Assembly: GCA_044892525.1 (NCBI GenBank)
Contig: CM097888.1
Coordinates: forward strand, 41,106,001-41,170,000
DNA: 64,000 bases
Reading direction: 5' to 3'
From: Schmidtea polychroa
Lineage: Eukaryota
Positions within the stretch are counted from its first letter, which is position 1, and every line of letters starts with the position of its first letter. Below the pieces are notes generated by a model that was not told where the DNA came from, ran no database searches, and saw only the letters and a list, made by a program, of their open reading frames with translations. A program made the position numbers and the translations under genes. This document shows positions 7,914-57,660 of this stretch, in pieces.

Positions 7914-9516
7914 TCAGACGAGAATGATACAATTTCGGCCTTTATTAATATATATGATTTTAGAAAGAATGTGAGATCCCTCGACAATAGCACATTCTCG
8001 TTTAGATCTCGCCTGCGATCTCCTACAATGTAAACCAAAAGATGATTCATCAATGGAAATGATTTTAGAGAGATAATTATTAAAATGGTTATTGAACCAC
8101 AAGGAATATTCTTTTCAAAGTCTAATCTTGTCAATTGTATTAATTCGATCAAATTCACGGTGGGTACACTTGACGGTTATTTTTTCAATTCTTCAAGACA
8201 TCTGCTAATTGTTGACATCAAAATGGTAAAATTTCCATCGTGTGTCTCTTCAATGTTCACTTTTATTTCTTTTAATGTATAACTCGGATTAAATGAAATG
8301 AAATCTTCGGTTTCATTCATCACAGATAATGTTAGAACATCTCGTTGCCTACCATCTTTGGGCAGCTTGTATATCAAACCGTTTTTGTCGAATCTCCTTG
8401 TAATTGTTCGAGCAGATCCATAATTTATTCGTAAAAGCTCGGCGGCCTCCTTTGTTGTACGGCCTTGCAAATAAACCAGTCTAATTGTTGACATCAAAAT
8501 GGTAAAATTTCCATCGTGTGTCTCTTCAATGTTCACTTTTATTTCTTTTAATGTATAACTCGGATTAAATGAAATGAAATCTTCGGTTTCATTCATCACA
8601 GATAATGTTAGAACATCTCGTTGCCTACCATCTTTGGGCAGCTTGTATATCAAACCGTTTTTGTCGAATCTCCTTGTAATTGTTCGAGCAGATCCATAAT
8701 TTATTCGTAAAAGCTCGGCGGCCTCCTTTGTTGTACGGCCTTGCAAATAAACCAGTCTAATTGTTGACATCAAAATGGTAAAATTTCCATCGTGTGTCTC
8801 TTCAATGTTCACTTTTATTTCTTTTAATGTATAACTCGGATTAAATGAAATGAAATCTTCGGTTTCATTCATCACAGATAATGTTAGAACATCTCGTTGC
8901 CTACCATCTTTGGGCAGCTTGTATATCAAACCGTTTTTGTCGAATCTCCTTGTAATTGTTCGAGCAGATCCATAATTTATTCGTAAAAGCTCGGCGGCCT
9001 CCTTTGTTGTACGGCCTTGCAAATAAACCAGTCTAATTGTTGACATCAAAATGGTAAAATTTCCATCGTGTGTCTCTTCAATGTTCACTTTTATTTCTTT
9101 TAATGTATAACTCGGATTAAATGAAATGAAATCTTCGGTTTCATTCATCACAGATAATGTTAGAACATCTCGTTGCCTACCATCTTTGGGCAGCTTGTAT
9201 ATCAAACCGTTTTTGTCGAATCTCCTTGTAATTGTTCGAGCAGATCCATAATTTATTCGTAAAAGCTCGGCGGCCTCCTTTGTTGTACGGCCTTGCAAAT
9301 AAACCAGTCTAATCAGGGTTTTCTGTTTTCGTTACTAACTGTTTTATAGTCGATGCTATATCTGTTCCTATTGACATTGTGCTTTATGGCATTTCTGCCA
9401 ACTTTCATCATCACATTAACTACATTTGTCCACAATTGCGTTTGCTCATGATCAATTGTAACATTATCGTCTGGATTGTCGAACTAGCAGGCAACTACTT
9501 CATTTTCTTCGTCCAT
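7914..9516 (-). mobile_element. Degenerate Tc1/IS630-type transposase relic
   Basis: Bipartite HTH region (YKTVSNENR..LIRLVYLQGRTTKEAAELLRINYGSARTITRRF), then, across stops and frameshifts, IISIDESSFGLHCRRSQARSKR with the first DDE aspartate motif. TIRs not resolved. Confidence 0.75.
8205..9313. repeat. Four apparently identical 276-bp tandem copies (92 codons each) of the transposase HTH segment
   Basis: CTAAT recurs at 8205, 8481, 8757, 9033 and 9309 (period 276). The reading frame stays open through all copies (ORF 8177-9298). Confidence 0.95.
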
Positions 9517-40729: not shown

Positions 40730-41713
40730 TGTTGAGGTCTCGATATTCGGGAACACTCAACTTACTGGTTCTTATATATGTACAAATATATCAAAAGACA
40801 AAGTGATTTATAAAACTTTTATTATAAAGAAAAATTTACCAATATGAATTTGTTGCTAGATTACAAAAATCCAAAAATCCTTCAAATATCCAACCGAATA
40901 TGCTTGTATGTACTGTGTGAATGTTATGTATTCTCTTGCTGTGTTGCGTGTAGGCTTTTGAACGTTTCTGTTTGTCTGTTCGAGTTTTAGCACTAATAAG
41001 GATTAACCTTTTTAGTATGTTAACGCGGTTAAAATTTTGGGGCCAAAAAAATGAATTTTGACTCGCTATTTATACTTTTTCTTTTAAGAGAAAATGATTA
41101 AAAATTTAATTAATATATTTTAAGTATTCTTAAGTATGCTTAAAAAATGAATTTAATATATTTTAGCAGATGTTTTTCCTTAATACTCTAACAGATATTA
41201 TTTAACCAGATGTTTTTCTTACTCTATTATTTAATAATTACAATTATTTTTCCTTACAACTTGCGTGCATTATTTTAACAAAATTTAGATTTCTAATTAT
41301 TTTATAGTATTATTATTATTTCATTATATTATTTATCTCTACTTATAAAACTAATTATTAATGATTTAATTTACCCTTTTATAAAAATATTAAATGTATA
41401 CGGAAAGATATATTAAATAAAAATTAACAGCTACTCAAAAATATGTACAAACTTCTATAGAATAAAAATAATTAATATATACACCAATAATATCATAAAG
41501 AAATAAAATAAGTAAAATAAAGGATAGTCCAAATGACACAGCATGAATAAAGTAAATAATGAATTTAGTTAACACATAATCGTCAATATTTTGAATTGTC
41601 CGGCTTTGGTTGTCTGGGTTCCACATAGATATTGACTCTGAACTTGTTGCTGCCCGTTCTATAGTAGTGTGTTAGTTCAAACTCTTCAATTCTTCTTCCT
41701 CTGTCATCCAACA
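40730..41713 (-). repeat. 3' LTR (984 bp)
   Basis: Identical to 56049-57032 except GTA (41015-41017) vs TGT (56334-56336). AATAAA on the minus strand at 40818-40823. Confidence 0.97.
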
Positions 41714-42101
41714 CTCCTCCTAGGGTCGATAAAGTAATGTCCTCATTACCTTTATCGCTAAGGACCAATTCGATTTCGCAACCGTTTATATACATTGTTG
41801 CTCTTTGGAATCCTTTCTTCAATGCCAATTTTAACACATCACCATCAATAATTCGTCTGCCGAAGTGTTGATGTATTTCTTTTTCCGAGATAGTGGATCT
41901 TCCCTCTTTGATGATGAACATTGGCTCCTCCAACTCGACATTTGGCTCTGATCCTAGTTCGTCATCTATCTGCATTGCTTCGCTCGGTGAGAAATATTCT
42001 TCATCCGAGTCTAAATCACATTGTGGGTCAGCATAGTTGTAACTACTTGATGTCTGAGGTTCTTCCTTTATTTTGATTGCTTGTGGTACGTCTGCTCCCA
42101 T
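41583..42101 (-). CDS. ORF4, 172-aa acidic protein running through the PPT into U3 of the 3' LTR
   Basis: True ATG at 42101. The frame crosses the LTR boundary at 41713. A diverged homologue at 13.6/15.5 kb supports coding status. Confidence 0.65.
   Translation of the reverse strand: MGADVPQAIKIKEEPQTSSSYNYADPQCDLDSDEEYFSPSEAMQIDDELGSEPNVELEEPMFIIKEGRSTISEKEIHQHFGRRIIDGDVLKLALKKGFQRATMYINGCEIELVLSDKGNEDITLSTLGGVLDDRGRRIEEFELTHYYRTGSNKFRVNIYVEPRQPKPDNSKY
41714..41721 (-). promoter_or_regulatory. Polypurine tract
   Basis: Minus strand AGGAGGAG immediately before TGTTGG of the 3' LTR. Confidence 0.65.
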
Positions 42102-42447
42102 CTTTATTGAATTTCAATTCTCTTTGTGAGGGTTCGATATATATATCTCCCTCAAATTCTTCTGGCTCATCGCTGTTTTCTTCTATTGGACTGAGTTGAT
42201 GGCCATTATTTTCCTTTTGGAATGCTGTCATATCCCACCTTATGACTTCTTCCCATTGCTTTTCGACCAAGAGGTAAATGACTTTTGCGATTAGTGTTGT
42301 ATCTTCTGCTGAGAACGGTTCGGGTTTTTTGAGGATGTTGTTGATTGCTTTCTTCCATTTTGGGTGTGTTGCGATTACCTTGTATGCGAGATTCGATAGT
42401 TTGATTCTGTGTGGTGCTACATTTTTGACGAATGAACACATGAACAC

Positions 42448-45400
42448 TAGGGTGGGTCGAAAATTTTTTTTTCTCCAAACATGCCTAAAAAGTTGTGCTT
42501 ATGCTAGAAAATGAAATATCCCTGCAAAAGACTGCTGTTTAAAAGGGTTTACAGGTCCCAACTTTTGTTTGTATGTATTAGTACTATCCCAGTAAAAATG
42601 CTCGCACACGTGCCATTGTAAATTCATCCTGCAAGCAGTCACACGCTTGCAGAAAGACCATTTTTGACATGCTCTATTCACAAGTCCGAGCTAACGCGTG
42701 CATGTATAGAGAGGTTAATTCACGGAAGCACCTTCACACAAGCACTCACAAAGACAATTTCTTCTGAACAATACTAACACACACACTACAGTCAACACAT
42801 AATCCACATGGATACTACTAGTCAGTCTAAACTCAGATAATTTAATTTGTTTCGATTGGATGTCAAGTGTTTGCTGGACCTAATTAAAAAAGTTAACTTG
42901 ATGATTCACTTTTATTTTGCCAGAGCTGAGTACAGAAGAGCAGTTATGAAGGAACAGAGAAATAAGCAATTTCGCAAAACAAGAAGTAAATCACGTCATT
43001 GTCTGTTTGGTCAAACTTGTGAACTACCCAGAAACCAATTACCTACTTGTGAAGATGTGTTTCGTGATTACTGTTATAATGAGAAATGTACGCAATTTCA
43101 TACTGGCTTTAACGAACAAGCAACTCTTCTCGCAAATAAGGTGAAGGAAATTTATATGAAGGCAAGTATCCCAACTGTTGAGTTCAGTAGTATTGTGGTT
43201 CGTGTCAAGCGACTAATATCAAAAGTGCGTGAATTAGAGAAGTATCCAGAATGCAAGAGGTCATCTGCCAAATTTCAAGATAAGTTAAGCTCGTTTTCCA
43301 AATAGTTTGACATATGTTGCTGCAAATGTTTTAATTATGGTGCTCGAGGAAGATTTCAGTGTACATGCCGATTGGCCTTGAAAATTCCTACCTTAGAGTG
43401 GGAGTTCTGGATTGACCAACAAACTACCAGAAACATGAAAATCGGAAATACGGACAGACAGGAAACCTCAAAATTGAAGAGAAAACAAACGAAAAGCAGC
43501 CCTACAGGAAAAGGAAAACAAATGAAAAATGAAATAATGGACACTGAAGTTAATGATCTACATCCGACCTCAAGAAGTGACACGGAGAGTGAAGCCGCTA
43601 GTGATGAAAGTAAAGATAAGTTAGACAATTCAACAGGAAGTTCAGAGTCAAGCGTAGAAGAATGTGATGAATTTCAAAATAGAAGACATTATCCTGAATT
43701 AAGTAAAGCTGTTGACAGATGTGGTGTGAGCAACAGAGACACGTGTTTGCTAGTAAACGCTTTTCTGAAAGATATGGAACTGTTATCCTCTCAAACAATC
43801 ATTGATCCCGCAAAATTACGGCGTCAGAGAAAGTACTGGAGGGAGAGAGAAATTGAACAGCATTCAGCAGAAGCGAAAAACTTGATTTGCCTCGGTTTCG
43901 ACGGGAAACAAGATTCCACCTTACTTCATAGAAGGATCCTAAAAGAGGAGCATTATGTGATTGTCGCCTTTCCAGGGGATACATATATCGATCATGTTGT
44001 ACCTCAAAGTAGTAAAGCTGTGGATATTGGCAAAGAAATCATGTCAATCATCGTTAGCACGCAGTCCTCACTGACCCTTCAAGCAATTGTGTGCGATGGA
44101 ACCAATACAAACACCGGAAAAAATAATGGAATAATCAGAAGACTCGAAAAAAGCCTAGGGCGACCTCTACAATGGCTGATATGCTTGTTGCATGCAAATG
44201 AATTGCCATTCAGGAAGTATTTTTCAGTCGTCGATGGTGGAGAAACAAAAGGTCCAAAAACGTCATGTGGTGAAATAGGAAGCGTTCTTGATTTTGATCC
44301 AAAAGACAAGCCCGTAGTAGCCTTTATGTCCCTTCCTGGAAAGGTCGTAGATATTAGTGAAAATGTCAAGAAAGAATTGAACACTGATCAATTGTATTTC
44401 CTCAGAGTATGCTTGGCAGTCCAGAAAGGGTACCACAACAACAAGGATGTCCCTTTTCTACAAATGGCACAACCAGGAAATTTGAATCACAGTCGCTGGC
44501 TAACGAAAGCTAATAGAATTCTGCGACTATATATGTCCGAAACTGCTCCATCTGAACCTCTCATGCGAATAGTGAAATTTATTGTCAATTTCTATGGACC
44601 GTCATGGTTTTATATAAAGACTCACTCGTCATGCCAAGATGGTGCAAGAAATATTTTTTATATGCTCCAACTTCTGCAGGATTTGGATCCATCAGACCAA
44701 GAAATCATCTTTCCTGTCATTCAGAACAACAATTACTTCTCACATCCAGAAAATATACTCCTAGCTGCTGTTGGTGATGATGATGAAGAAATCAGAAAGT
44801 TTGCAACAGAAAAAATCATAACTGCAAGACAAAATTTTCTCCCTTCCGAAGTGATTCGCACTATGGACAAGAATACTGTCTTTCTTCAGTCGTCTGCTAC
44901 ATCATATGTTGACATGATTGACTGGACAAAATGTAATTTGACGCCTCCCCCTCTTTTATCTCATATATTGGATCATGAATTGAAGATGAATAAGAAAATT
45001 ACATTAGAACAATTTCCCTGTCATTCTCAAGCCGTTGAAAGAGCCATCAAAGATGTTTCTTCTGCCAGTTGCAAAGTGTTTGGTCACAAGTCCAGACATG
45101 GTATGGTACTACTGTGTAAAAAATCAAGGAAGGAATTGCCCAAGGTGCAAAGCAAAATGATTTCACGTGACTTCTTTTTATGCCCTCGCTAATACATTTC
45201 TAAACTTTTGGCTGGATGTTTTTAATAAAAAATAATTTCGAAAGTTGATTTTTGTCTTTGAAAAGGATAATTCAAATTTGGCCCTTCCTAATCACTGACG
45301 TTGTCAGGATATATTTCAATGCGGGATGAGGACACAGAATATACTATCTCAGCCCAAGAGAGTAAATAATATACTTATAAGCTCTTAAGAAAGCTACATC

Positions 45401-45617
45401 TAAATATGGACAAAGGCGCAAAACACATTCCGACACTAGCCAAATTACATTGTTTTCACACTTATGTTGAACTGCATTTTCGGAGAAAAGTTGGGAGCAG
45501 TAAATGTCCATAAATCTAAGTAAAATGGTTTGATTCGATTTTTCTATACCAAAATACAACTTTTTAACCATGTTTCCTTTCTTGAACTCAAAATTTATTA
45601 ACATTCGACCCACCCTA
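42448..45617 (+). mobile_element. hATm-type DNA transposon (3,170 bp) nested in ORF3
   Basis: 14-bp TIR TAGGGTGGGTCGAA / TTCGACCCACCCTA. Perfect 8-bp TSD ATGAACAC. The subgroup name rests on the TAGGG ends and the FDGK.D motif. Confidence 0.92.
42847..45192 (+). pseudogene. hATm transposase with one in-frame TAG (43303-43305)
   Basis: The two track ORFs share a frame (SK*FDICCCKC). Motifs LGFDGKQD, VCDGTNTNTG, ICLLHANELP and PCHSQAVER. The true start is uncertain (possible short first intron). Confidence 0.85.
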
Positions 45618-46604
45618 ATGAACACATCTTCAGCTAACTCTCTGACTCCCATGACATTGTACAGATCTAATGTCAGCGTATTGAGTTTCTTTATTATTTC
45701 GTATCCCACAATGATTTTTCCGAGTAGCAGCTTCTGTATGTCGATCAGCGCTTGGTATTCGTCTTCATTTCCTCTTATTGAATCCCTGTCTGCTCTTGTC
45801 TTCTCCGGGTAATAATGTTGGATTTTGGTGCGTGGAGTCACCTTTTTATTGTATACGATTTCTCCTCTAAAATTTCTGATGCATATCTCTACTGGTCTGA
45901 GATTGTTATTGATGTCGCATACTTCTTTGACATCGACGAACATGATTGCCCTTTGTCGTTCGGGGATTGACAACTGTTGATGTGTGAATGACATCCGTTT
46001 CGAGATGAAATCCTGATGTATCACGATTTCCGACTGTATCATCTCTAATTCTCTGAAAGGATTGGGTATGGTTGGGACATATAGAATTTCGATAGCCATC
46101 ACACAGGGTAAATTGTTCATTTGGATGACCAAATTGTTGAAATCGTTTGGCACGCTTCGATTTGTCTTCATCGTCTTGATCACCACCGTGCAGTTGCTTG
46201 TTGTTATAATAGGGATTCGTTGTTGGCAAATTGAGACCTCCGTTCTGGTCATATGGAATAGTATTCTATGTGGGACTTTTCTTCCTTCATTTGCTGCGAT
46301 ATCTGCATTTTTGAACATATCATAGGTGCCTATTATATCTCTCAGCTTTATCCTTCGGGCTTCATTAAATTTAACTAAGTGCATTTCTCTTTCTTCGATT
46401 TCGCACTTCATTTCATTGGGTATGCAGACCTGGTTAGGGAAACTTCTGATGGTGATTGGTGAGCCGTCTGAGGTGATTTTATTTTGCAAATTTTTGTAGA
46501 AACTGTGGTATAGTTTTTGAATGGAGCAGCTGTATTGTTGGACTGGACGTTGTATGGGATTGAATGGTTTGGGATTGACTCTGGTATTGTTGGATTGCAT
46601 TTTT

Positions 46605-46625
46605 CTAAAAAAACAATATAAACAT
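46605..46625 (-). promoter_or_regulatory. Candidate 3' splice acceptor for an ORF3 subgenomic mRNA
   Basis: Minus strand TTTATATTGTTTTTTTAG|AAAAATG, with the AG ending 4 nt before the ORF3 ATG. Confidence 0.5.
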
Positions 46626-46741: not shown

Positions 46742-47572
46742 TTAAACCAATGAGGACATTGTGTATTGTCCTGGCCTATACTTATCCAAATGAAAATGCC
46801 CTGGTACATTTTTGACCAGTCGGTGCCGATACCGCTGCCTTTTCCATTTGTATTTTTTATACACTTGAACACTGGTGATAATAGCTAAAATACTCAATGC
46901 TAAAATGCTTGATGAGATTACATAGAAAGGCCATCGTGGTTTAGCAGGTTTTACTTGAAATGCTCTTAGTTCATCCCAGTTATTTATGATTATGGGTTTT
47001 CCCGTAGGTAATTTTACCAGTTTCCTATCAAACTGTCTTAGATTTTTTATTATTAATTTTTTGTATATTTGTCTAGTTACTTTAAATGTCGTTTCTCTAT
47101 CTGTGTTTGTTATCGTTTGTAATGACTGTTGGGTGGATGCCGAATTTGTGGTAGTTATTGTTATGGTGGTTGTTGGCATGCTATTATCTATGGGCTTATA
47201 TATGTTTGTGATAGTGGTTCTTATTCTTTTGCACCTTACTTGTGATGTGTCAACTAAGGTATTCCATTGTGCACAAAGTGTGTAATTAGTGTTAGGCTGT
47301 AGATTTATGAATTCAACATTGTCTCCTCTTTCAAATTCATTAGTTGATCTATTCTCAATTTTTTTCATAAGCTTGGGTATATCGTTCCCAGTTTCTAGAT
47401 ATAAGTCTCTTATGGGTGATTTATTCAAGTTATATACTTTAATCTTATACGGTGAAATGTTGATTAATATATCTTCCTCCATGTATTTTACTGAGTGTAT
47501 GCTCTCATTTTCTACTTCAGTTGATTTACATAGCCCTATAATTGTTAAAAAGATCGCTGCCATCATCAGTGC
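46742..47572 (-). other. Post-integrase type-I membrane protein domain (signal, FN3-like strand pattern, Thr-rich stalk, TM, basic tail)
   Basis: Hydrophobic ALMMAAIFLTIIGLCKS (47522-47572). Four N-X-S/T sequons. VEFINLQPNTNYTLCAQW, then PTTTITITTTNS, then TM FYVISSSILALSILAIITSV (46868-46928) followed by YKKYKWKRQRYRHR. Confidence 0.75.
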
Positions 47573-50500
47573 TTTTTGTGATCGTAATCCATATTTGTGA
47601 GGTGGTTTTTCTATTAACTCTGTTTCTGCTAGTTTGCATCTATTAACATGTACTATTATCGGATCCTCATTTTTATGTTTTTGTAAATGCAGGTTTTCAT
47701 GTACTACTTTTACTACTTCGTATGGTCCTTTAAATGGTCTTGCTAATTTAGTTGTTTTGCCTTTACCTACTTGTGGAGACATAAGTCTAACCTTATCTCC
47801 CACTTTAAAATTATGAGGTTTACTATTTTTATCGTAATCTGCCTTATATTGTTCTTGTCTAAATCTAACTTTTAAGTTTGCAACTTTATATACCTCTTGT
47901 AATCTCTCTTGCATTAATGTTACATAATCTGGCGCATCTAAATATTGTGATACTCGAGGCTCTCTTAAGAACATTAGAAAATATGGTGAATATCCCGTTG
48001 TCTCATTTGGTGTGATATTATGGATGTATGTGCATTGATTAACGTATTCATCCCAATCATTTTGGTTTTTTCCCACAAACACAGCTAATCTACTTAGCAA
48101 TGTCCCATTGAATCTCTCTACTAAACCATCGGTCTGAGGGTGGTATGCTGTTGTGTTGATTTTATGCATGTTAAATATGTTAGCTACTCTTTTTATAGTT
48201 TCACTCATGAAATTTTTCCCTTTATCTGTTAATAATTTTCTCGGTGTACCGATTTTAAAGATTATTTTTTCCACAAGTAATTTAGCTACTGTTTCTGCTG
48301 TTTCATCTTTTGTAGGAAATGCCTCTGCCCATTTTGTAAAATAATCGCTAAAAACTAGTATGTGCTTATTCCCATTAATTGTTGTGGGTAGTTTACACAA
48401 AAAATCCATTGCGCACAGTTCCATTGGTGATGTTGTAGCTGGGATTGGGTGTAAAGGTGCTTTAGTTTTTGTTCCTGTATTTTTTCTAGTTGCGCATATT
48501 GTGCATGCATTACACCATCTCTTGACATCCTTTTTCAAATCGTCCCAATAATATTTTTGCATCAATCTGCTTGCTGTTTTCCTACTTGATAAATGACCTC
48601 CTAAAGCACCATTGTGATATTGTAACAGAAGAATTTGTCTTAATCTTTGTGGTACTACTATTAATTGTTTACCGCTAAAATCCTCAATAACAATTAACTT
48701 CTTACAGATTTTATACTTTTGGTTAGTTCCCTTTTTTATTTCTTCTCTTATCTTGAAGAGTTCTGGATCTTTCATTTGTTCCTCATATATTTCTATTGGT
48801 TTTTCGGTTACTAATGCAAAAACTTCTAGTGCTCCTAACTCTGGAATTCGTGATAATGCATCTGCATTCCTGTTTATTCTACCTGATTTGTATGCAATCT
48901 TTATGTGCATGTCTTGTATTTTTATTGCCCATTTTAACAGTCTACTGGATGTATCTTTATGTTTCCATAACCCTTCTAATGGCTTATGGTCTGTTCTAAT
49001 TACTACTTCAGTTCCATATATGTATGGTTTAAATTGTTTTAATGCAAAAACTATAGCATAACATTCTTTCTCAATTGTTGAGTACCTAATCTGTGCTCCT
49101 TTTAATGTTTTGCTTGCATAAGCTATTACATAATCTTTACCCTTTTCCTCTTCTTGTCCTAAGACTGCCCCTATGGCCTTCCCGCTGGCGTCTGTCATGA
49201 CAATGAACTGTTTTTTAAAGTCTGGGTATCTTAGTATCGGTGCTGTTATTAATTTTTCTTTTAGTTGATCAAAAGCTTTTTGGTGTTCATCTTTCCATTT
49301 CTTTTGTGGCTTGTTAATTTTATCGTTAATCTCTTGTACTATTAACACTCCTTTACTCTCTCCCTTTGTTTTGACTCCTTTTGTTAACTCAATTAGTGGT
49401 GCTGCTATTTTTGCATAATCTTGTATGAATTTGCGATAATATCCTGTGAGACCTAAAAATCCCTGTACTTGTTGTAATGTTTTTGGAACTGGGAATTTTT
49501 TAACTACTTCAATTTTATCGGGATTAGGTATTATACCATCTACTGTAACTATATGTCCTAAGAATAATGCTGAAGGTTCTGCCCATTTACACTTAGTGGG
49601 TTTTATTTTGATTTTTGCTTTTCTTAATCTTTCTAGTACGTTAGCTATATCTTTTAGATGTTCCTCAAATGTTTTTGATGAAATTAATATATCATCCATA
49701 TATACTGCGCAATGTTGTACGTCTACTAATACTGTATTCATTAAACGTTGAAATGTTGCTGGCGCATTAGTTAACCCAAAAGGTAATCTTGTATATTCAT
49801 ATAAACCGTCTTCTATCACAAAAGCTGTCTTTTCCGCATCCCCCTCTTCCATTTGAATTTGCATGTAGCCTTTATTTGCATCTATTACTGTGAAATATTT
49901 AGTATCTCTAAGTTTATCATATTGTTCTTGTGCTTTTGGGAATGGGTATGAGTCTTTTACTGTTACATCATTTAATTTACGATAATCAATGCACATTCGA
50001 ATTTCCCCGTCTTTCTTTCTAACTGGTACGATAGGTGATGCCCATTGTGAAAAACTTTGTTTTATTACGCCTGCCTCTTTTAATTCTTTAATTTGTCGTT
50101 TTATTTCCTCCCTCAGTTTATATGGTACACTATAGGGTCTCTGTTTTATTGGTCTAGCATTCCCTGTATCGATTACATGTTTGATAATGTCAGTATCTCC
50201 TAAATCAAATTCGTGTTTTGCAAAAACATCACTGTATTCGTCAAGTAATATTTGTAGTTGTAGTTGTTGTGTTTCATTTAGATAATTATTATTTATTTTA
50301 ATCTTATCATAAAATTTAATATTATTCGCTCTACTCTGTTCGACCATTCTCTCACTGACATCACTCGTCATCGACATTTCACATACTTCAAATGTTTGCT
50401 CTAATTCACCTTTGAACAACTTTCCCAATTTTGTACCTTTATGAATTTTTACTTTATTTCTTTCGTAATTCGCGATTCTTATTGGAATTGTCCCATTATT

Positions 50501-53500
50501 TGGGATTACACACTCGTCTGTTAACATTACATTATGATTTCGTGATATTGCCGTTTCAGGCTCGAAAATGAAAGTGTCCTCACTTTTAACATTAACTTTT
50601 ACTGGAATTATATGATCACTTTGATACTCTAGTTCAAATGTCTCTAATGCAATTACCTCAGTAAATCTTGCGTCTTGACATATTGCCTTCCGTTTGACTG
50701 TACTATCCGTTAAATCGATTACACAGTTTTTTAACTTTCTGAGTATATCCATGCCAAGGACACATACGCATTTACACTCTGCTACTACCTTGAAGACATG
50801 TTCAACCACTTGATCCGAAAAGTGGACTGTTAATTCGATATCTCCTTTTAATGGTATGTAATGTGATGATAATGAAATTACTCTATCTCTTGTGCTCACG
50901 ATATTTTTCTTTTGGTTTCCGGTTAACTGATCTTCACGAATCATAGAAGCTGCTGCTCCTGTGTCGCATAATGCCTTTATTATCGTATCATTTATCACTA
51001 TTTGTAATTTAGGCCTTGCTTCATTTAACCCTTCTAATATATCGTCAAGTTCTAACCCATAACATCCATAAGTTTCCCTTGGAACACAATGACAATTACC
51101 ATTTTCACCTGGGATTCTAATTTCAATATTATTTCTCAATTCTGTCAATTGTTCTCTTTGATTATCATATAACCCAATATGTGGTTGCTCAGTATTTTCT
51201 GATCTGTTTGTATCGTCCTCTTTCTCATTGGTGATCATTATTTCACCCTCTTCCCTTCGACTTTTCATCCGTTTGATTTCCTTATCGTGCCTCGCAGTGA
51301 TCAAATATTTGGCTATGAATGGACATAAACATGCTATCATTTTATATGAATTACCAAAAACTTGTCTCAGTTGTCTTAACGAAACTAATGATGAGCAAAT
51401 CATTTTCAATAGTGCTACTGTATAATATATACCCAATATAGTGGAAAACGTATTTCCGAGAATCGCAAAATATCCCCATATGCTGTATAATACTCTATAC
51501 ACAACTTTCTTGAAGTGCTCTTTTGATAATAATACATCAAAGTTGTAATTTCCTCCATAACTATTTTCGATGATTTTGTTTACCATGATAGAAAGAACTT
51601 TTTCTTTTTCATGAGGAAATAACATATGTTTTCTGGCGCTCTCTATCGCCTCTCTCGTATACATCCCATTGTTATCCATTTCGTTGACTTCCTGAAATTC
51701 TAACTTTTTCTCAAGTTCAGTTAGTTCTAGTTTTTGTGGTTTAGTCGCTTCTTTTCTATCTGACATTGTAATCCACATATCATCATTTATTTTGTATAAT
51801 GGATCTAATAGATTAGTACATTTATCAATTTTTCTCGGAACATAGTCTTTATCTGTTAATATCCTTGTTATTGGTTGGAGGTATACAGTTTCTCCTTTAT
51901 ACACTACTGGCAATTCGTTTGTGCACTTATTATTCGTTGCTAAAGATACGCTAACCGGTTTACACTGAAATGTTTGTATCACTTCACCGACAACTCTTGC
52001 AAATGTCCCTTTCTCTGCAAATAAAATTGGTGCCATTAAATCTGGGTTTGTGACTGCAACCGCCATCTTTGTTCTTAATATTTCTCTGTTGAGTTTACAA
52101 TCGTTTGCAATAGTTGCTTGATATACTTTGTCCAATTGTACTAACTGATGATGATAGAAATAATCAATTTTATTATTAAAATATGATGCTAGCTTGACGT
52201 CGAATTTATCTATTCTCGATTTTGCCTCTTTAATTTCACTTCCGCTGATATAAATTCCCTCATAATTTGTTTGCACGACTGCCTTGCCACATTTTATGCT
52301 TTCACCTTTTCCTAAAAATCTCATCCCCTCTGTTTCAGAATCTGACATGTATATTGTTGGGGTATCTCTCTCTTGAATTATCGTTGCTCGTCGTTTTTGG
52401 TCTTTGATGCTCTTGGATTCTACATCCGTAAACTGTTTACCTCGTATCGTTCTGAATTTCAGTGTCTTTAATTTAGTTAGATGGCATTCGTATTTATTCA
52501 CTCTGTATATGATCATTGACTCGCCTGTATCACAGCTTGTCTCCTCTAATGTGCAGAACTTATGTGTCATCATTTTCTTTGATGAACTATCAAATGACGC
52601 TTTGAATTTCCTTAATTCAATATAATACTGCCGTCTCACTACAATATTGTCTGCCACATGCCCCCATATTTTATACCTTCCTCCTTCACAATATCCTCCT
52701 GTTGATGACCATCCCACGACATTTACTAATTGTCTTACTCGTGCTCCTACCTGAGCATCTAACTCAAATCCATCCGGCGTTTTTATCTTTTTTGTTTTAA
52801 ATGCATTTTCGCATTCAACTGGCGTTATTATTATTGCTTCTGGTGCCCATGTTGGGGTTAATATTGTTCTTGCCACCTTGTTACACACAAAACTTTCCTC
52901 TGAATATTTGACTATACATTCTCCTGCTTCTGTGTGAATGAAATCAGATTCCTGATATATATGGAAAATCTTGGGGTCTGCTACAATTAATTTTGTTGGA
53001 TTAGCCTCTGGGCAATTTTCTACATCCAGCAATGAATATTTTTGTCCCCACTTGGGATTCTGACAGTCATACGCTATGATCGCATTATTCCCTTTTATCA
53101 GATCTAATAACAATGTTATTACTATAATTACTATTGACATTGTCGACTTTCTTTCTTTTTGACTTGGTTTCATAGTTGTTTTATTTACTAGATTTTTTAC
53201 TGTTTCCTCCGTATCATCTATTTCTACATTAATATTATCTTCTACGCTTTCCTGAGCACTTTCGATTAGACTCTCATCATACAGTATTTTCCATCCTCCC
53301 TTTAATTTTATCCATGGCATAGCATCTATCTTTAATTTATTATATATCATTTTAGCGATATTTTCTATTTGATTCTTTGGATTCAATCGCAAATGTTTCT
53401 TGTATCTTGCTATTAAATATGCCATTGCCGTAATCACTTTATCTCGATTAACTCCTGTTGTAAATAATATCTTTAACACTGTCTCTTCATTTGCTTCCTC

Positions 53501-54280
53501 TGCACTCAATTCTCTAATCTCTTTTTCCATTAATTTAATCTTTTTAACTATATTTTCTATTAACGCTGATGGTTTTGCTTCCGGAAATCGTCTCATATTC
53601 ATTGCTTTAACTAACTCTGTTATCATCTTTATATCTTTGTCATTATCCTGAATTTTTGGGACTTCCTGTCTCATATTATTTGCAATATCTCTTAGACGCT
53701 CTGCTGCCTTTCTGTCATCTGACTTTTCGGCTATTTCCGATTTTCGAGGCCTTCCTCTACCTCGTCTCATCGTCTCTGCGTCCTGCATATTTGCTTGTTT
53801 CGCAATTTTTTCTATTGTCTCATGTAAATTATCATATTTAGTATCAATAGGTTTAAAGATTTCATCGCTAACTGTTGGTGACCTCATTGCTCCTCCTGAA
53901 GAAGCATCCCACAATCTAAATAATTTATCATAGTCATTTTCGTCATTTATACTCAATTCTACTGATGGAGTTGGTGTATCAATTTCTTTACTTTCTTGCC
54001 TTTCTATTACTGCAGAAATAATATTGTTATCAATGACGTTTACTCCATAGTCAATTATATATTCATTATTCATCATTTCTACGCCGTTAAAATACAGTTT
54101 CACTTTATCATTATCTCCCAATTTCTCGGGCCAATTTGCTGTGGCCATCTGTTTCACTTTATTCACTTTTGTGCAAACATGTACCCCTGTACTACGCATA
54201 AGTATTCTCGAAAGGTCCTTTGCCTCAATAGTTATATTCAATGACTCATGTAATTTCTGATTTTTTCTCACAAATTCACC
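46742..54280 (-). CDS. pol: Giant accessory-Env-Pol-membrane polyprotein (2,509 codons from GTG at 54271; the open frame begins at 54280)
   Basis: Uninterrupted frame. PR LCDTGA (DTG 50957-50965). RT YRKLN, PFGLTNAPATFQR and YMDD (49691-49702). RNase H TDASG. IN HHCC, D-D35-E and GPY. Confidence 0.95.
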   Translation of the reverse strand, partial: GEFVRKNQKLHESLNITIEAKDLSRILMRSTGVHVCTKVNKVKQMATANWPEKLGDNDKVKLYFNGVEMMNNEYIIDYGVNVIDNNIISAVIERQESKEIDTPTPSVELSINDENDYDKLFRLWDASSGGAMRSPTVSDEIFKPIDTKYDNLHETIEKIAKQANMQDAETMRRGRGRPRKSEIAEKSDDRKAAERLRDIANNMRQEVPKIQDNDKDIKMITELVKAMNMRRFPEAKPSALIENIVKKIKLMEKEIRELSAEEANEETVLKILFTTGVNRDKVITAMAYLIARYKKHLRLNPKNQIENIAKMIYNKLKIDAMPWIKLKGGWKILYDESLIESAQESVEDNINVEIDDTEETVKNLVNKTTMKPSQKERKSTMSIVIIVITLLLDLIKGNNAIIAYDCQNPKWGQKYSLLDVENCPEANPTKLIVADPKIFHIYQESDFIHTEAGECIVKYSEESFVCNKVARTILTPTWAPEAIIITPVECENAFKTKKIKTPDGFELDAQVGARVRQLVNVVGWSSTGGYCEGGRYKIWGHVADNIVVRRQYYIELRKFKASFDSSSKKMMTHKFCTLEETSCDTGESMIIYRVNKYECHLTKLKTLKFRTIRGKQFTDVESKSIKDQKRRATIIQERDTPTIYMSDSETEGMRFLGKGESIKCGKAVVQTNYEGIYISGSEIKEAKSRIDKFDVKLASYFNNKIDYFYHHQLVQLDKVYQATIANDCKLNREILRTKMAVAVTNPDLMAPILFAEKGTFARVVGEVIQTFQCKPVSVSLATNNKCTNELPVVYKGETVYLQPITRILTDKDYVPRKIDKCTNLLDPLYKINDDMWITMSDRKEATKPQKLELTELEKKLEFQEVNEMDNNGMYTREAIESARKHMLFPHEKEKVLSIMVNKIIENSYGGNYNFDVLLSKEHFKKVVYRVLYSIWGYFAILGNTFSTILGIYYTVALLKMICSSLVSLRQLRQVFGNSYKMIACLCPFIAKYLITARHDKEIKRMKSRREEGEIMITNEKEDDTNRSENTEQPHIGLYDNQREQLTELRNNIEIRIPGENGNCHCVPRETYGCYGLELDDILEGLNEARPKLQIVINDTIIKALCDTGAAASMIREDQLTGNQKKNIVSTRDRVISLSSHYIPLKGDIELTVHFSDQVVEHVFKVVAECKCVCVLGMDILRKLKNCVIDLTDSTVKRKAICQDARFTEVIALETFELEYQSDHIIPVKVNVKSEDTFIFEPETAISRNHNVMLTDECVIPNNGTIPIRIANYERNKVKIHKGTKLGKLFKGELEQTFEVCEMSMTSDVSERMVEQSRANNIKFYDKIKINNNYLNETQQLQLQILLDEYSDVFAKHEFDLGDTDIIKHVIDTGNARPIKQRPYSVPYKLREEIKRQIKELKEAGVIKQSFSQWASPIVPVRKKDGEIRMCIDYRKLNDVTVKDSYPFPKAQEQYDKLRDTKYFTVIDANKGYMQIQMEEGDAEKTAFVIEDGLYEYTRLPFGLTNAPATFQRLMNTVLVDVQHCAVYMDDILISSKTFEEHLKDIANVLERLRKAKIKIKPTKCKWAEPSALFLGHIVTVDGIIPNPDKIEVVKKFPVPKTLQQVQGFLGLTGYYRKFIQDYAKIAAPLIELTKGVKTKGESKGVLIVQEINDKINKPQKKWKDEHQKAFDQLKEKLITAPILRYPDFKKQFIVMTDASGKAIGAVLGQEEEKGKDYVIAYASKTLKGAQIRYSTIEKECYAIVFALKQFKPYIYGTEVVIRTDHKPLEGLWKHKDTSSRLLKWAIKIQDMHIKIAYKSGRINRNADALSRIPELGALEVFALVTEKPIEIYEEQMKDPELFKIREEIKKGTNQKYKICKKLIVIEDFSGKQLIVVPQRLRQILLLQYHNGALGGHLSSRKTASRLMQKYYWDDLKKDVKRWCNACTICATRKNTGTKTKAPLHPIPATTSPMELCAMDFLCKLPTTINGNKHILVFSDYFTKWAEAFPTKDETAETVAKLLVEKIIFKIGTPRKLLTDKGKNFMSETIKRVANIFNMHKINTTAYHPQTDGLVERFNGTLLSRLAVFVGKNQNDWDEYVNQCTYIHNITPNETTGYSPYFLMFLREPRVSQYLDAPDYVTLMQERLQEVYKVANLKVRFRQEQYKADYDKNSKPHNFKVGDKVRLMSPQVGKGKTTKLARPFKGPYEVVKVVHENLHLQKHKNEDPIIVHVNRCKLAETELIEKPPHKYGLRSQKALMMAAIFLTIIGLCKSTEVENESIHSVKYMEEDILINISPYKIKVYNLNKSPIRDLYLETGNDIPKLMKKIENRSTNEFERGDNVEFINLQPNTNYTLCAQWNTLVDTSQVRCKRIRTTITNIYKPIDNSMPTTTITITTTNSASTQQSLQTITNTDRETTFKVTRQIYKKLIIKNLRQFDRKLVKLPTGKPIIINNWDELRAFQVKPAKPRWPFYVISSSILALSILAIITSVQVYKKYKWKRQRYRHRLVKNVPGHFHLDKYRPGQYTMSSLV
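51298..53140 (-). other. env: Envelope glycoprotein domain, chuvirus-G/herpes-gB-like (class III fusion) type, located upstream of the protease
   Basis: Signal MSIVIIVITLLLDLIKGNNA, then IIAYDC...YSLLDVENC. 14 Cys in the ectodomain, including GWSSTGGYCEG and FQCKPVSV...KCTNELPV. Membrane segment VLYSIWGYFAILGNTFSTILGIYYTVALLKMICSSLVSL (51377-51493). Confidence 0.85.
53270..53635 (-). other. Bcl-2-family-like domain (BH1 and BH2)
   Basis: Ungapped 60-aa alignment (53291-53470) of ILFTTGVNRDKVI...QIENIAKMIYNKLKIDAMPWIKLKGGW with Bcl-2 ELFRDGVNWGRIV...[27 protein letters not shown]. Confidence 0.75.
53740..53770 (-). other. AT-hook motif
   Basis: RRGRGRPRKS. Confidence 0.7.
54000..54240 (-). 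other. Ubiquitin-like domain at the polyprotein N-terminus
   Basis: KVKQMATANWPEKLGDNDKVKLYFNGVEMMNNEYIIDYGV resembles ubiquitin [21 protein letters not shown] and the UBL3/MUB NWP motif. No C-terminal GG. Confidence 0.6.
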
Positions 54281-55809
54281 TTAACACTTTATCATTTCTT
54301 TCAATTCTATTTCTAGTTCAAATACTCTTGTCATATTTTGCCTCTTTACCATTAGTGATATCAAATTTCTCAAATATTCTAAGTCAATTCCTTCGACTTG
54401 AACTCTATTTATTATACGCAATGTCTCATTGTCATCATAAGGCCATTTCTCTAATGTCTCTTTCAATTCCTCTTTTAATTCTTTACATCTATTTGCTTCT
54501 GCAAGAAATTTCTCATCCGCTTCTCTTGCTTCGCGAAACTCATCATTATCTATATCTACATCATTAGTAAAACACTGAAACTCATTTAATGACATTTCTA
54601 ACTTTCTCTCAATAAGTCTCCCATATTGAGTTTTAAATTCTTTTAATTCCTCTCTCAAACTGTTTATTTCCTTATTAGCTGATATCAACTCAGCACTATT
54701 AATTTGTTTTATCTCAGGCTCATTTTTAAATCTCACTCTATTAGGCGATTCGCTTCGCGCATTGTTACATACTTTAGCTAAGTGACCATATTTTTGGCAA
54801 TTATAACATTTGATCTGTCCATTAAAATTTACTTTATCTCTACCATCATTATTATAAGGGCTTCCTCGTCTTTCTCTATATGAATTCTGTCTATATGGAC
54901 TTGTCTGTCTACGTCTCAAATCATTTGTATTATCTCTATTATCATATCTATTACTTCTATCATATTTATTATTTCTCAAATTATTTCTATTAAAATCGAC
55001 TCGATTATCTCTCGTATAATTATTTCTATTGTATTCGTATCGATTATCTCTATCAAAAGTGTTTCTATTGTTTCTATTCTCAAAGTTTCTGTTTCTCACA
55101 TTATCAAACCTCCTCCTGTTTTCAGGCGATTGACTTCTATCCGGACTCGGGCTTACCCTTCGTCTATTTTTTACAAAGTTTAAATATAGTTGCTTCATCT
55201 CCTCCCAGGGAATGTTGTCATCTGACTTACCCAACTCAGATTTTACCTCGATGGGTTTTTGAATTTCCATTGCATCTACATGTGAGCTAAATCTATCTCG
55301 TTGTATTGCTTCTATACGTTTAGCTTTATGAACTAATTCATTTAAATTACCATATTCTACCATAATTAATGCTTTATATAAATATTTTTGTATACCATTC
55401 CAAAACTGATCCTCAATTAACTTTGCTGTGTGCTCGCCCGCACCAAATGCCTTTTTCGCTAACTCCGTAATCGTATATACATATTCACCAACTGATTCTC
55501 TAGTACCTTGATATCTGTTTCTAAATTTTTGAACATTTATCTTTTGTAAATCGCTATCGATTACTATTTCTGCTCTCAGATATCTTACGAGTTGATCAAA
55601 ATTATTCCCTTTACATTCTAAGTTATTGTATGCCTGTAACGCATAACCTTTTAAGTATAATGGGATTCTCATTTTTAATTCATCAGGTGTCCAACCACAA
55701 GCTTCTGCATACTGAGCGATCTCAGTGAAAAAATCGTCGAACTTTCAGGCTCTCCTCTATATGGTTCTACTGGTAAAATTTTTATGTAATTATTATTATT
55801 ATTATTCAT
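54281..55809 (-). CDS. gag: Gag (~509 aa) with a 1-nt frameshift near 55743-55745
   Basis: ATG at 55809. PVEPYRGEPE/FDDFFTEIAQYAEACGWTPDELKMRIPLYLKGYAL is the Ty3 capsid start. Other motifs: YRQ-like RYQGTRESVGEY, an R/N-rich linker and zinc knuckle CYNCQKYGHLAKVC. Confidence 0.9.
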
Positions 55810-56048: not shown

Positions 56049-57032
56049 TGTTGAGGTCTCGATATTCGGGAACACTCAACTTACTGGTTCTTATATATGT
56101 ACAAATATATCAAAAGACAAAGTGATTTATAAAACTTTTATTATAAAGAAAAATTTACCAATATGAATTTGTTGCTAGATTACAAAAATCCAAAAATCCT
56201 TCAAATATCCAACCGAATATGCTTGTATGTACTGTGTGAATGTTATGTATTCTCTTGCTGTGTTGCGTGTAGGCTTTTGAACGTTTCTGTTTGTCTGTTC
56301 GAGTTTTAGCACTAATAAGGATTAACCTTTTTATGTTGTTAACGCGGTTAAAATTTTGGGGCCAAAAAAATGAATTTTGACTCGCTATTTATACTTTTTC
56401 TTTTAAGAGAAAATGATTAAAAATTTAATTAATATATTTTAAGTATTCTTAAGTATGCTTAAAAAATGAATTTAATATATTTTAGCAGATGTTTTTCCTT
56501 AATACTCTAACAGATATTATTTAACCAGATGTTTTTCTTACTCTATTATTTAATAATTACAATTATTTTTCCTTACAACTTGCGTGCATTATTTTAACAA
56601 AATTTAGATTTCTAATTATTTTATAGTATTATTATTATTTCATTATATTATTTATCTCTACTTATAAAACTAATTATTAATGATTTAATTTACCCTTTTA
56701 TAAAAATATTAAATGTATACGGAAAGATATATTAAATAAAAATTAACAGCTACTCAAAAATATGTACAAACTTCTATAGAATAAAAATAATTAATATATA
56801 CACCAATAATATCATAAAGAAATAAAATAAGTAAAATAAAGGATAGTCCAAATGACACAGCATGAATAAAGTAAATAATGAATTTAGTTAACACATAATC
56901 GTCAATATTTTGAATTGTCCGGCTTTGGTTGTCTGGGTTCCACATAGATATTGACTCTGAACTTGTTGCTGCCCGTTCTATAGTAGTGTGTTAGTTCAAA
57001 CTCTTCAATTCTTCTTCCTCTGTCATCCAACA
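56049..57032 (-). repeat. 5' LTR (984 bp)
   Basis: See 3' LTR. TATA-like TATAAATA on the minus strand at 56386-56393. Confidence 0.97.
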
Positions 57033-57084
57033 CTTTCTTCGTTTACGGATCAACTTGCATTCCTATGCAATTTTGGAATCCTGT

Positions 57085-57660
57085 TTCACTGTCTTTGGTT
57101 CAGGAAAATTCTTTGCCTTTTCAACGTTGGCCGGATCTGGCTTTATTCCATTTTTCGAAATAATATGTCCTACATATACTACTTCGGATTCAGCCCATTT
57201 ACATTTTGATGGTTTCACTTTCAAATTGGCCTGAATTAATCGCTTGAACACGTCCTCCAAGTGTTCCAAATGGGTTAGGGGTTAGGGTTAGGGTGGAGGG
57301 TGGAGGGTGTACGTCCATTAACATGAGATTCATGGCTCTCTGAAATGTAGCCGGAGCTCCTGTGAGACCGAAAGACATTACATTATGCTCGTAATGTCCC
57401 ATACTTGTAGAAAATGCTGTTATTGGCATTGATTCATCTTTCATCTTGATTTGGTAGAACCCCTTCTGGGCGTCGATAACTGAAAAATATTTGGCATTTC
57501 TCATGTAATCTAACAGTGGTAGAAGATGATTATCTTTGGATGTTGCTTCATTTACCATACGATAATCATTACATAATCTTACTAAGCCATCTTTCCACCA
57601 CTATCATAGGTGATTGATATGGTGATTTGTTATGTCTGATAATACCATGCTTTAACATTA
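57085..57660 (-). pseudogene. Older Gypsy RT relic, the target region of the young element
   Basis: MLKHGIIR..SPYQSP, DGLVRLCNDYR, YFSVIDAQKGFYQI, SFGLTGAPATFQR and KPSKCKW, with frameshifts. YxDD absent. Confidence 0.9.
57272..57309 (+). repeat. Interstitial telomere-like tract
   Basis: GGGTTAGGGGTTAGGGTTAGGGTGGAGGGTGGAGGGTG. Confidence 0.85.

Follow-up and report, generated by a model that had tools for sequence, protein, structure and literature searches.

Flatworms, nematodes and bryozoans are known to carry retroelements with the gene order GAG-ENV-POL and a gB-type Env (Chary and Hayashi, eLife, PMC13524379). In the main text of that paper, sequence beyond integrase (IN) is treated only as chromodomains, neither fibronectin (FN3) domains nor attachment or accessory proteins are mentioned, and the movement of env-bearing retroelements between cells outside Drosophila is stated to be unknown. 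Burro also carries its Env in frame before the protease (PR), and the section on Burro in the review concerned (PMC6431247) describes no membrane protein after IN. The Env of HTLV-1 ends in a class I PDZ-binding motif, for which the consensus is S/T-x-hydrophobic at the C-terminus; according to the sections of PMC4810129 covered here, this motif engages DLG1 at virological synapses and promotes cell-cell fusion. In the Env-less MDG1-group elements of Drosophila, an extra transmembrane (TM) protein, the short fusogen-like sORF2, serves direct cell-to-cell transfer (PMC11952523, covered in part). The element described here belongs to the published GAG-ENV-POL group and encodes a second membrane protein after IN for which no earlier description was found in the literature covered. 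None appeared in the literature searched (Lee et al. 2026, Grohme 2018, Jurka 2007 and Sacco 2022 apart), the Troyka paper (PMC12440569) does not mention such a protein, and the part of PMC10680173 covered contains nothing on one.

The window, a stretch of 64,000 nucleotides from Schmidtea polychroa (contig CM097888.1 of assembly GCA_044892525.1, positions 41,106,001 to 41,170,000), contains a GAG-ENV-POL gB-type errantivirus (Ty3/gypsy) that lies near the published Smed_errantivirus_3 (Table 1). It shares with that element, a Platyhelminthes GAG-ENV-POL errantivirus of HSV/gB type (PMC13524379, covered in part), the gene order, the gB-type Env and the presence of many near-identical copies. 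Env is positioned between Gag and PR and is followed by PR, reverse transcriptase (RT), RNase H (RH) and IN, as assigned by Pfam; the Env match is to the Monjiviricetes-type fusion glycoprotein (PF24664 at aa 383-1033), and 204 of 246 residues, counted by eye, are identical to the Smed_errantivirus_3 row printed in the supplement of PMC13524379. At least 143 genomic matches were found among those listed, and PR-RT sequences are ~1% apart among 27 copies. No stop interrupts the 2512-aa frame between the Env region and the extension, with PR, RT, RH and IN in between. Among the 143 genomic matches, 11 have an unbroken frame of 3051-3090 aa, and all eight copies fetched from these 11 read from Gag to the extension in a single frame. 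The window copy is damaged twice, by a stop between Gag and the rest and by a DNA transposon nested in ORF2. The element measures ~13 kb without the nested transposon and ~16 kb with it, its polyprotein would be ~3050 aa long, and the 5′ LTR is followed by a TGG-starting stretch that resembles a primer-binding site. As in Burro/GYPSM1, one polyprotein holds Gag, ubiquitin-like and Bcl-2-like parts and an in-frame Env before PR; the Bcl-2-like match is weak here, and a Bcl-2-like motif has been published at the corresponding place in Burro (PMC6431247). Unlike Burro/GYPSM1, which exceeds 30 kb and has an ORF of ~4870 aa, the window element has no Pfam matches to BIR, MATH or ankyrin domains.

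Table 1. Features of the element and of the transposon nested in it (positions within the window)
Feature	Positions	Strand	Details
5′ LTR	56049..57034	-	986 nt, 99.7% identical to 40730-41715
Gag frame with CCHC knuckle	54281..55744	-	zf-CCHC E 3e-4; stop at end in window copy
2512-aa frame: accessory region, Env, PR, RT, RH, IN, second membrane protein	46742..54280	-	
Bcl-2-like stretch, weak	53291..53494	-	PF00452 E 4e-4, 21 bits, below the 31.4 cut-off
Internal signal sequence 1, before Env	53081..53140	-	hydropathy 3.22 over 13 residues
gB/chuvirus-type (class III) Env with TM	51284..53080	-	PF24664 E 7e-90
PR, RT, RNase H, integrase and its C-terminal domain	47633..51022	-	Pfam RVP, RVT_1, RT_RNaseH, Integrase_H2C2, rve
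Internal signal sequence 2	47522..47575	-	hydropathy peak, small -3/-1 residues; predicted cleavage after residue 2253
FN3-like β-sandwich (predicted), two Cys in last two strands	47219..47521	-	101 aa; AF2 model and structural search
Ser/Thr-rich stalk, fastest-changing part	47090..47218	-	43 aa, 44% S/T
Basic juxtamembrane ectodomain	46934..47089	-	52 aa, 14 K/R vs 3 D/E
Transmembrane helix	46862..46933	-	19-residue hydropathy peak 2.10 at aa 2453-2471
Basic cytoplasmic tail ending in candidate class I PDZ-binding motif S-L-V	46745..46861	-	
ORF2 5′ part, DEDD-exonuclease-like accessory ORF	45626..46600	-	interrupted by DNA transposon
Nested DNA transposon	42448..45617	+	short terminal inverted repeats, 8-bp target duplication; splits ORF2
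3′ LTR	40730..41715	-	986-nt LTR match

Several minor features accompany this layout. The ubiquitin-like stretch, recognized by eye, and an AT-hook-like RGRP motif lie between Gag and the Bcl-2-like part (54244-54002 and nearby, minus strand). Beyond position 57034 the DNA belongs to another retroelement, and the 5′ LTR feature covers just the stretch matched by the 3′ LTR; at 57035-57400 the truncated LTR is abutted by a piece of a different RT that contains a few telomere-like repeats. At L054:7077-9998 the PR region is fused in frame to the end of IN, with the Env part and the extension open and RT-IN missing.

The initial annotation had read the frame as passing beyond IN into a signal-like stretch, a domain, a Thr-rich stalk, a TM segment and a basic tail, and the frame and its hydropathy bear this order out. 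Signal 2 shows a 13-residue hydropathy peak of 2.62 at aa 2238-2250, with small residues at -3 and -1 of the predicted cleavage site in all three alleles, and the 39-aa tail contains 11 Lys/Arg against 1 acidic residue. The pattern of hydropathy and charge fits a type I membrane protein with a signal, a single TM segment and a positive-inside tail, cleavage being predicted. The domain of ~190 aa originally proposed divides into a folded domain of ~100 aa, which stands, and ~95 aa of stalk and juxtamembrane sequence, which do not belong to it. The Thr-rich character of the stalk holds for the window copy (Table 1), but in alleles B and C the stalk has a far more basic composition. Four sequons had been listed (NES, NIS, NKS and NYT); there are five, NRS having been overlooked. 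NIS and NKS each directly precede Pro, and Pro after a sequon disfavours its use. Alleles B and C lack NES, and allele C also lacks NKS, NRS and NYT; the sequons are poorly conserved. Between the end of IN and signal 2, a K/R-Y-x-L-R-S/P motif is present (47581-47601, minus strand) that is also found in L057, L061, L063, L092 and L099 and may resemble nucleosome acidic-patch-binding motifs. The frames of L041 and L042, which are of allele B type, shift within the stalk and yield long frames that end before the TM segment.

The extension is genuinely coding and evolves under purifying selection that is less strong than on Env or IN. Among the best-scoring genomic candidates, a set that leans towards intact copies, 75 of 88 near-full-length matches (window included) contain no stop. 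These near-full-length matches represent three alleles, which are about 97-100%, 75-79% and 56-63% identical to the window. Pairwise comparison of the alleles gives pN/pS values of 0.34 (95% CI 0.24-0.48), 0.37 (0.30-0.46) and 0.48 (0.38-0.59) for the extension as a whole, without multiple-hit correction, the corrected values being lower. The FN3-like part has values of 0.16-0.39, the stalk region 0.55-0.62 and signal 2 0.21-0.36 with wide intervals; in the comparison of alleles A and B, no part of the extension is more tightly constrained than the FN3-like domain (0.16). Env and IN have dN/dS values of 0.02-0.14. Sister copies therefore neither stop after IN nor lack coding conservation, the two points on which the initial annotation had let its proposal stand or fall. 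No homologue of the extension was found among same-length candidates of a 5.8-billion sequence set or with a three-allele profile against 1.84 billion representatives, and a PDB sequence search gave nothing significant (best E 0.12-0.14). A search of long proteins returned P0002 as its sole match, through the end of IN.

The outer domain likely adopts an FN3-like fold. The AlphaFold2 model, built from 10 close rows, is all-β (pLDDT 71.7, pTM 0.65), and a wide structural search places fibronectin (Fn7B8) at the top, with Z 7.7 and an rmsd of 2.9 over 78 aligned residues, a Z below 8 being one that may reflect a common arrangement. By title and by the known nature of the proteins, 43 of the top 50 structural rows are FN3-type. 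Of the FN3 and Ig folds for which the initial annotation had proposed an AlphaFold check, FN3 is thus the likely one, but formal thresholds are missed: Pfam fn3 gives 13 bits against a cut-off of 25 (E 0.12), and Foldseek against PDB and viral models returns no match at E<=0.001, its lowest E values falling on adaptin ear domains and its best TM-scores (0.55-0.57) on FN3. Among 19 units compared with Pfam fn3, 7 give weak matches (best E 0.011). The FN3-like motif noticed initially is indeed present in the extension. The E-F loop of FN3 domains carries the pattern L-x-P-x-T-x-Y, which is found in alleles A, B and most C copies; ELFN2 and Tie2 have this pattern too and align to it there, at E values that are not significant. 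FN3 strand B carries a conserved Trp, which is absent from the window family, where Tyr or Phe is found at the end of that strand, and is present in second units of other families. The Atlas neighbours assigned to a family are FNDC5 (0.89) and FNDC9 (0.88), which serve as leads only. The predicted arrangement of signal, FN3, TM and short tail is that of host FNDC5 and FNDC9, and the model of the three-unit form, a poor one (pLDDT 45), best matches CD45 d1-d4 (E 3.5e-5); unlike this likeness in form, sequence similarity to FNDC5, FNDC9 and CD45 is not significant.

The same anatomy is found in seven other families, which were reached through the top matches of the Env, IN and P0002 searches: L057, L061, L063, L092/L093, L094/L101/L102, L099 (a metagenome contig) and P0002. 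After IN, all seven contain a signal-like stretch, 2-3 β-rich units recognized by eye, usually a Ser/Thr-rich stalk, a TM segment and a tail. Together with the window family they form five groups with 45-58% RT-IN identity. L094/L101/L102 is Burro1-like, with 4791-aa frames and ankyrin repeats between IN and the membrane module, and ends in the signal, ectodomain, TM and PDZ-type terminus described here. Env is seen in six of the seven; no Env match was found within the P0002 sequence, which leaves the upstream DNA uncovered. L094 had been considered as a family without Env and module, and was rejected as such, both being present. The sole env-less control seen, L100, ends in a chromodomain-like stretch. 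Two of the families show further features. In P0002, residues 45-231 form a signal-unit-TM module just before PR, at the place of Env in its relatives, and this module is paralogous to the P0002 unit after IN (Z about 10). L099:97-11208 encodes a 3703-aa polyprotein with Gag, Env, two protease-like stretches, Pol and a two-unit membrane module, and also has two ubiquitin-like stretches that are weak in Pfam.

The ectodomains of these families, with 1 to 3 units, cannot be aligned to that of the window. Profile-profile comparison of the window domain with the other families' units gave a probability of 0.3%; in a search of 564 targets those units fell outside the top 15, which consisted of shuffles and decoys; in a further comparison the rank reached was 19 of 501; and pairwise Z was at most 3-4. 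Because the window domain has no significant sequence similarity to the other units, their description as the same module rests on position and anatomy.

The best-kept feature of the module, overlooked in the initial annotation, is a candidate class I PDZ-binding motif at its C-terminus. The window alleles end in SLV, TLV and TWV, so that the free C-terminus of this family has the sequence of a class I PDZ ligand, and the other families end in TRL (L057), TWV (L061), TFV (L063), SQL (L092, a frameshifted copy), TLV (L101/L102), TFV (L099) and TIV (P0002). An S/T-x-V/L terminus is present in 8 of 8 families versus 116 of 2089 frame ends (5.6%) in the fetched loci, although the 8 families share ancestry and were chosen as top matches, and so do not amount to eight independent trials. 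On the strength of this terminus, the tail may bind PDZ domains. The motif would fit just as well a virion attachment protein that uses it for trafficking, or a protein that interferes in host signalling.

Comparison of alleles A and B was made on 29 copies from the top of the genomic matches, 15 with allele A (window included) and 14 with allele B. The DNA distance between them is 10% in the FN3 part, 20% in the rest of the extension, 1.3% in PR-RT and 2.3% in the second half of Env; the step in divergence falls at the boundary between IN and signal 2, and PR to IN is nearly homogenized. Fixed amino-acid differences number 10/101 in the FN3 part, 19/43 in the stalk, 13/52 in the juxtamembrane part, 7/24 in the TM segment and 5/39 in the tail, or 54/259 over the mature protein, against 1/599 in Env and 2/346 in IN. 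A linkage of the Env N-terminus with the extension alleles was considered and rejected: it is perfect in the DNA of the first 300 nt of Env, where 12 fixed DNA differences separate the allele groups, and absent at the protein level, with zero fixed amino-acid changes at aa 401-500 (the first 100 residues of Env). Env-N cluster A4 is nearer B2 (0.039) than A1 (0.063). As a separate observation, the N-terminal half of Env (52180-53080) ranks second in variability when copies are compared; its sequences form six DNA clusters and show signs of recombination but few amino-acid changes.

Exchange has thus placed different 3′ modules on a shared backbone while Env did not change to match; this is one event with one allele pair, and one in which contact through invariant residues is possible. 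Paramyxoviruses (HN, H or G with F) and herpesviruses (gD and gH-gL with gB) use two surface proteins, one of them a fusogen, and paramyxovirus attachment proteins are type II proteins with a β-propeller head that pair with their own F. The protein described here differs from these in its type I pattern, its predicted sandwich of ~100 aa and its allele change without Env change. What stands of the earlier suggestion is the second membrane protein itself, of type I, with a predicted FN3-like fold and retained in sister copies. Its companion proposal, a fusogen and a matched attachment protein of paramyxovirus type, is not supported, and the replacement of 54 of 259 mature residues while Env stays essentially unchanged argues against such a pair. 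Co-folding of the Env ectodomain with the FN3-like domain, as monomers and without alignments, scored 0.00 and carries no weight either way.

Variable ectodomains combined with a cytoplasmic PDZ-type end that is kept in all families point to a job inside the producing cell. We place first, with slightly less than an even chance of being right, a role as an adhesion and positioning factor that would gather the assembly site at cell-cell contacts for cell-to-cell spread; particle attachment or fusion triggering, which does not exclude this role, would come next, followed by host mimicry, a membrane anchor and chance. The hydrophobic segments alternate between signal and TM, which predicts that Gag and Pol are cytoplasmic and that Env and the FN3-like domain are outside; in order, Gag would lie inside, then signal 1, Env outside, TM, Pol inside, signal 2, FN3 outside, TM and the tail inside. 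Signal peptidase would cut the second membrane protein free of the polyprotein, and this route would yield one copy per Gag, Env and Pol. The ~125 nt that lead up to the Met-Met of signal 2 contain no pyrimidine-rich acceptor, signal 2 starts without Met in several other families, and the contig joints listed include no canonical splice joint, which together make release by signal peptidase the simpler route. Contigs of run X1, presumed to be RNA, cover the extension, contigs being unable to show the level, strand or absence of a transcript. The last three residues of the released protein would bind PDZ scaffolds, the protein would gather the assembly site at cell contacts, and the gB-type Env would fuse there. 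Since Env is internal to the polyprotein, its tail would have no ready-made free C-terminus and the second protein would hold the only native one; it could therefore bear the PDZ function that HTLV-1 puts on Env itself. The protein may thus be a functional analogue of HTLV-1 Env, a retroviral membrane protein whose terminal class I motif is tied to cell-contact sites (PMC4810129, covered in part), with the differences that the motif there is on the fusogen and here on a separate FN3-like protein, and that the two have no homology. It also resembles sORF2 in being an extra TM protein of an LTR retrotransposon, and differs in having a predicted folded ectodomain beside a full Env (PMC11952523, covered in part).

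A particle-surface receptor-binding protein, which would dock released particles on target cells and might trigger the gB-type Env, is the somewhat unlikely but strongest competitor. Such a role would suit a type I surface protein produced one-to-one with Env and exposing an FN3-like head on a Ser/Thr-rich stalk; the two deeply split alleles on one backbone resemble a host-interface module, and herpesvirus gB, by textbook account, requires partners. Set against this are the single fixed Env difference in 599 residues between groups whose FN3 parts differ at 10 of 101, the purifying rather than diversifying selection on the head (pN/pS 0.16-0.39) and the cytoplasmic location of the feature best conserved across families; the textbook single-glycoprotein class III systems, rhabdovirus G and baculovirus GP64, also work without a partner.

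It is unlikely that the protein acts chiefly as a receptor mimic or decoy on the host cell, where it would occupy PDZ scaffolds or a ligand, alter polarity or survival signalling, or block re-entry of related elements. The Bcl-2-like and ubiquitin-like parts of the same polyprotein are in keeping with such a role, as are the Tyr motifs near the tail end in several families and the single-pass host FN3 proteins among the Atlas neighbours; Burro1 has been reported, second-hand, to protect stem cells from apoptosis (PMC13465017, covered in part). No likeness to a specific host receptor emerged from the sequence searches (PDB, the 5.8-billion set and the 1.84 billion representatives), however, and the ectodomain varies freely in size and sequence between families; the exclusion variant is without direct evidence.

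A mainly structural role is very unlikely. The module would here serve Pol as a second membrane anchor and as a tag for sorting or budding, and its outer domain would be no more than a folded spacer: signal 2 would tether the end of IN to the membrane until cut, the tail of one family contains a PPxY motif, and the ectodomains are interchangeable in size. Against this, the FN3-like domain is more constrained between alleles A and B than any other part of the extension (pN/pS 0.16), and the 2-3 folded units kept in other families are needless for a bare anchor. Chance read-through without protein function is extremely improbable: the lack of a homologue among the 1.84 billion representatives or the same-length candidates of the 5.8-billion set is outweighed by 75 of 88 open frames among the best-scoring near-full matches, pN/pS intervals that, for the entire extension, all stay below 0.6 and the same anatomy in seven other families.

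If the adhesion and positioning role is taken further, flatworm GAG-ENV-POL elements could be two-glycoprotein agents that combine a class III fusogen with an FN3 adhesion protein, captured and exchangeable, whose tail docks on PDZ domains, and that would build a synapse-like contact for passing capsids between cells such as stem or germ cells. This wider proposal is possible but doubtful. If true, it would describe a retroelement spread system with a dedicated adhesion component, in which allele swaps set which cells are reached. A conserved second surface protein with a putative scaffold-binding tail offers a concrete handle on cell-to-cell movement of env-retroelements, in a tractable host animal whose stem cells express related elements. 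The polyprotein is also a gypsy example of a predicted alternating membrane topology like those of flavi- and alphaviruses, and its 3′ module has been swapped between copies while the enzymes stay about 99% identical.

Downstream of the extension, ORF2 is continuous in sister copies. Its remainder in the window lies at 42439-41583 (minus strand), with counterparts at L054:5268-6725 and L099:12085-13473, the latter having a weak RNase_T match (E 1e-3). The DEDD acidic motifs of this accessory ORF appear complete in L054 and L099 and degenerate in the window family. A T-rich tract ending in AG at ~46606-46625 (minus strand), directly before the ORF2 ATG, resembles a splice acceptor for a subgenomic RNA. 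The nested transposon at 42448-45617, which we take to be of hAT type, has ends that start TAGGGTG (inverted); a contig joint of 42439-45618 spans it in two runs, and its contig depth in runs X1-X3 is far above that of the retroelement. Elsewhere in the window, a tandem array of 276-nt units, 95-100% identical, occupies positions 8205-9332.
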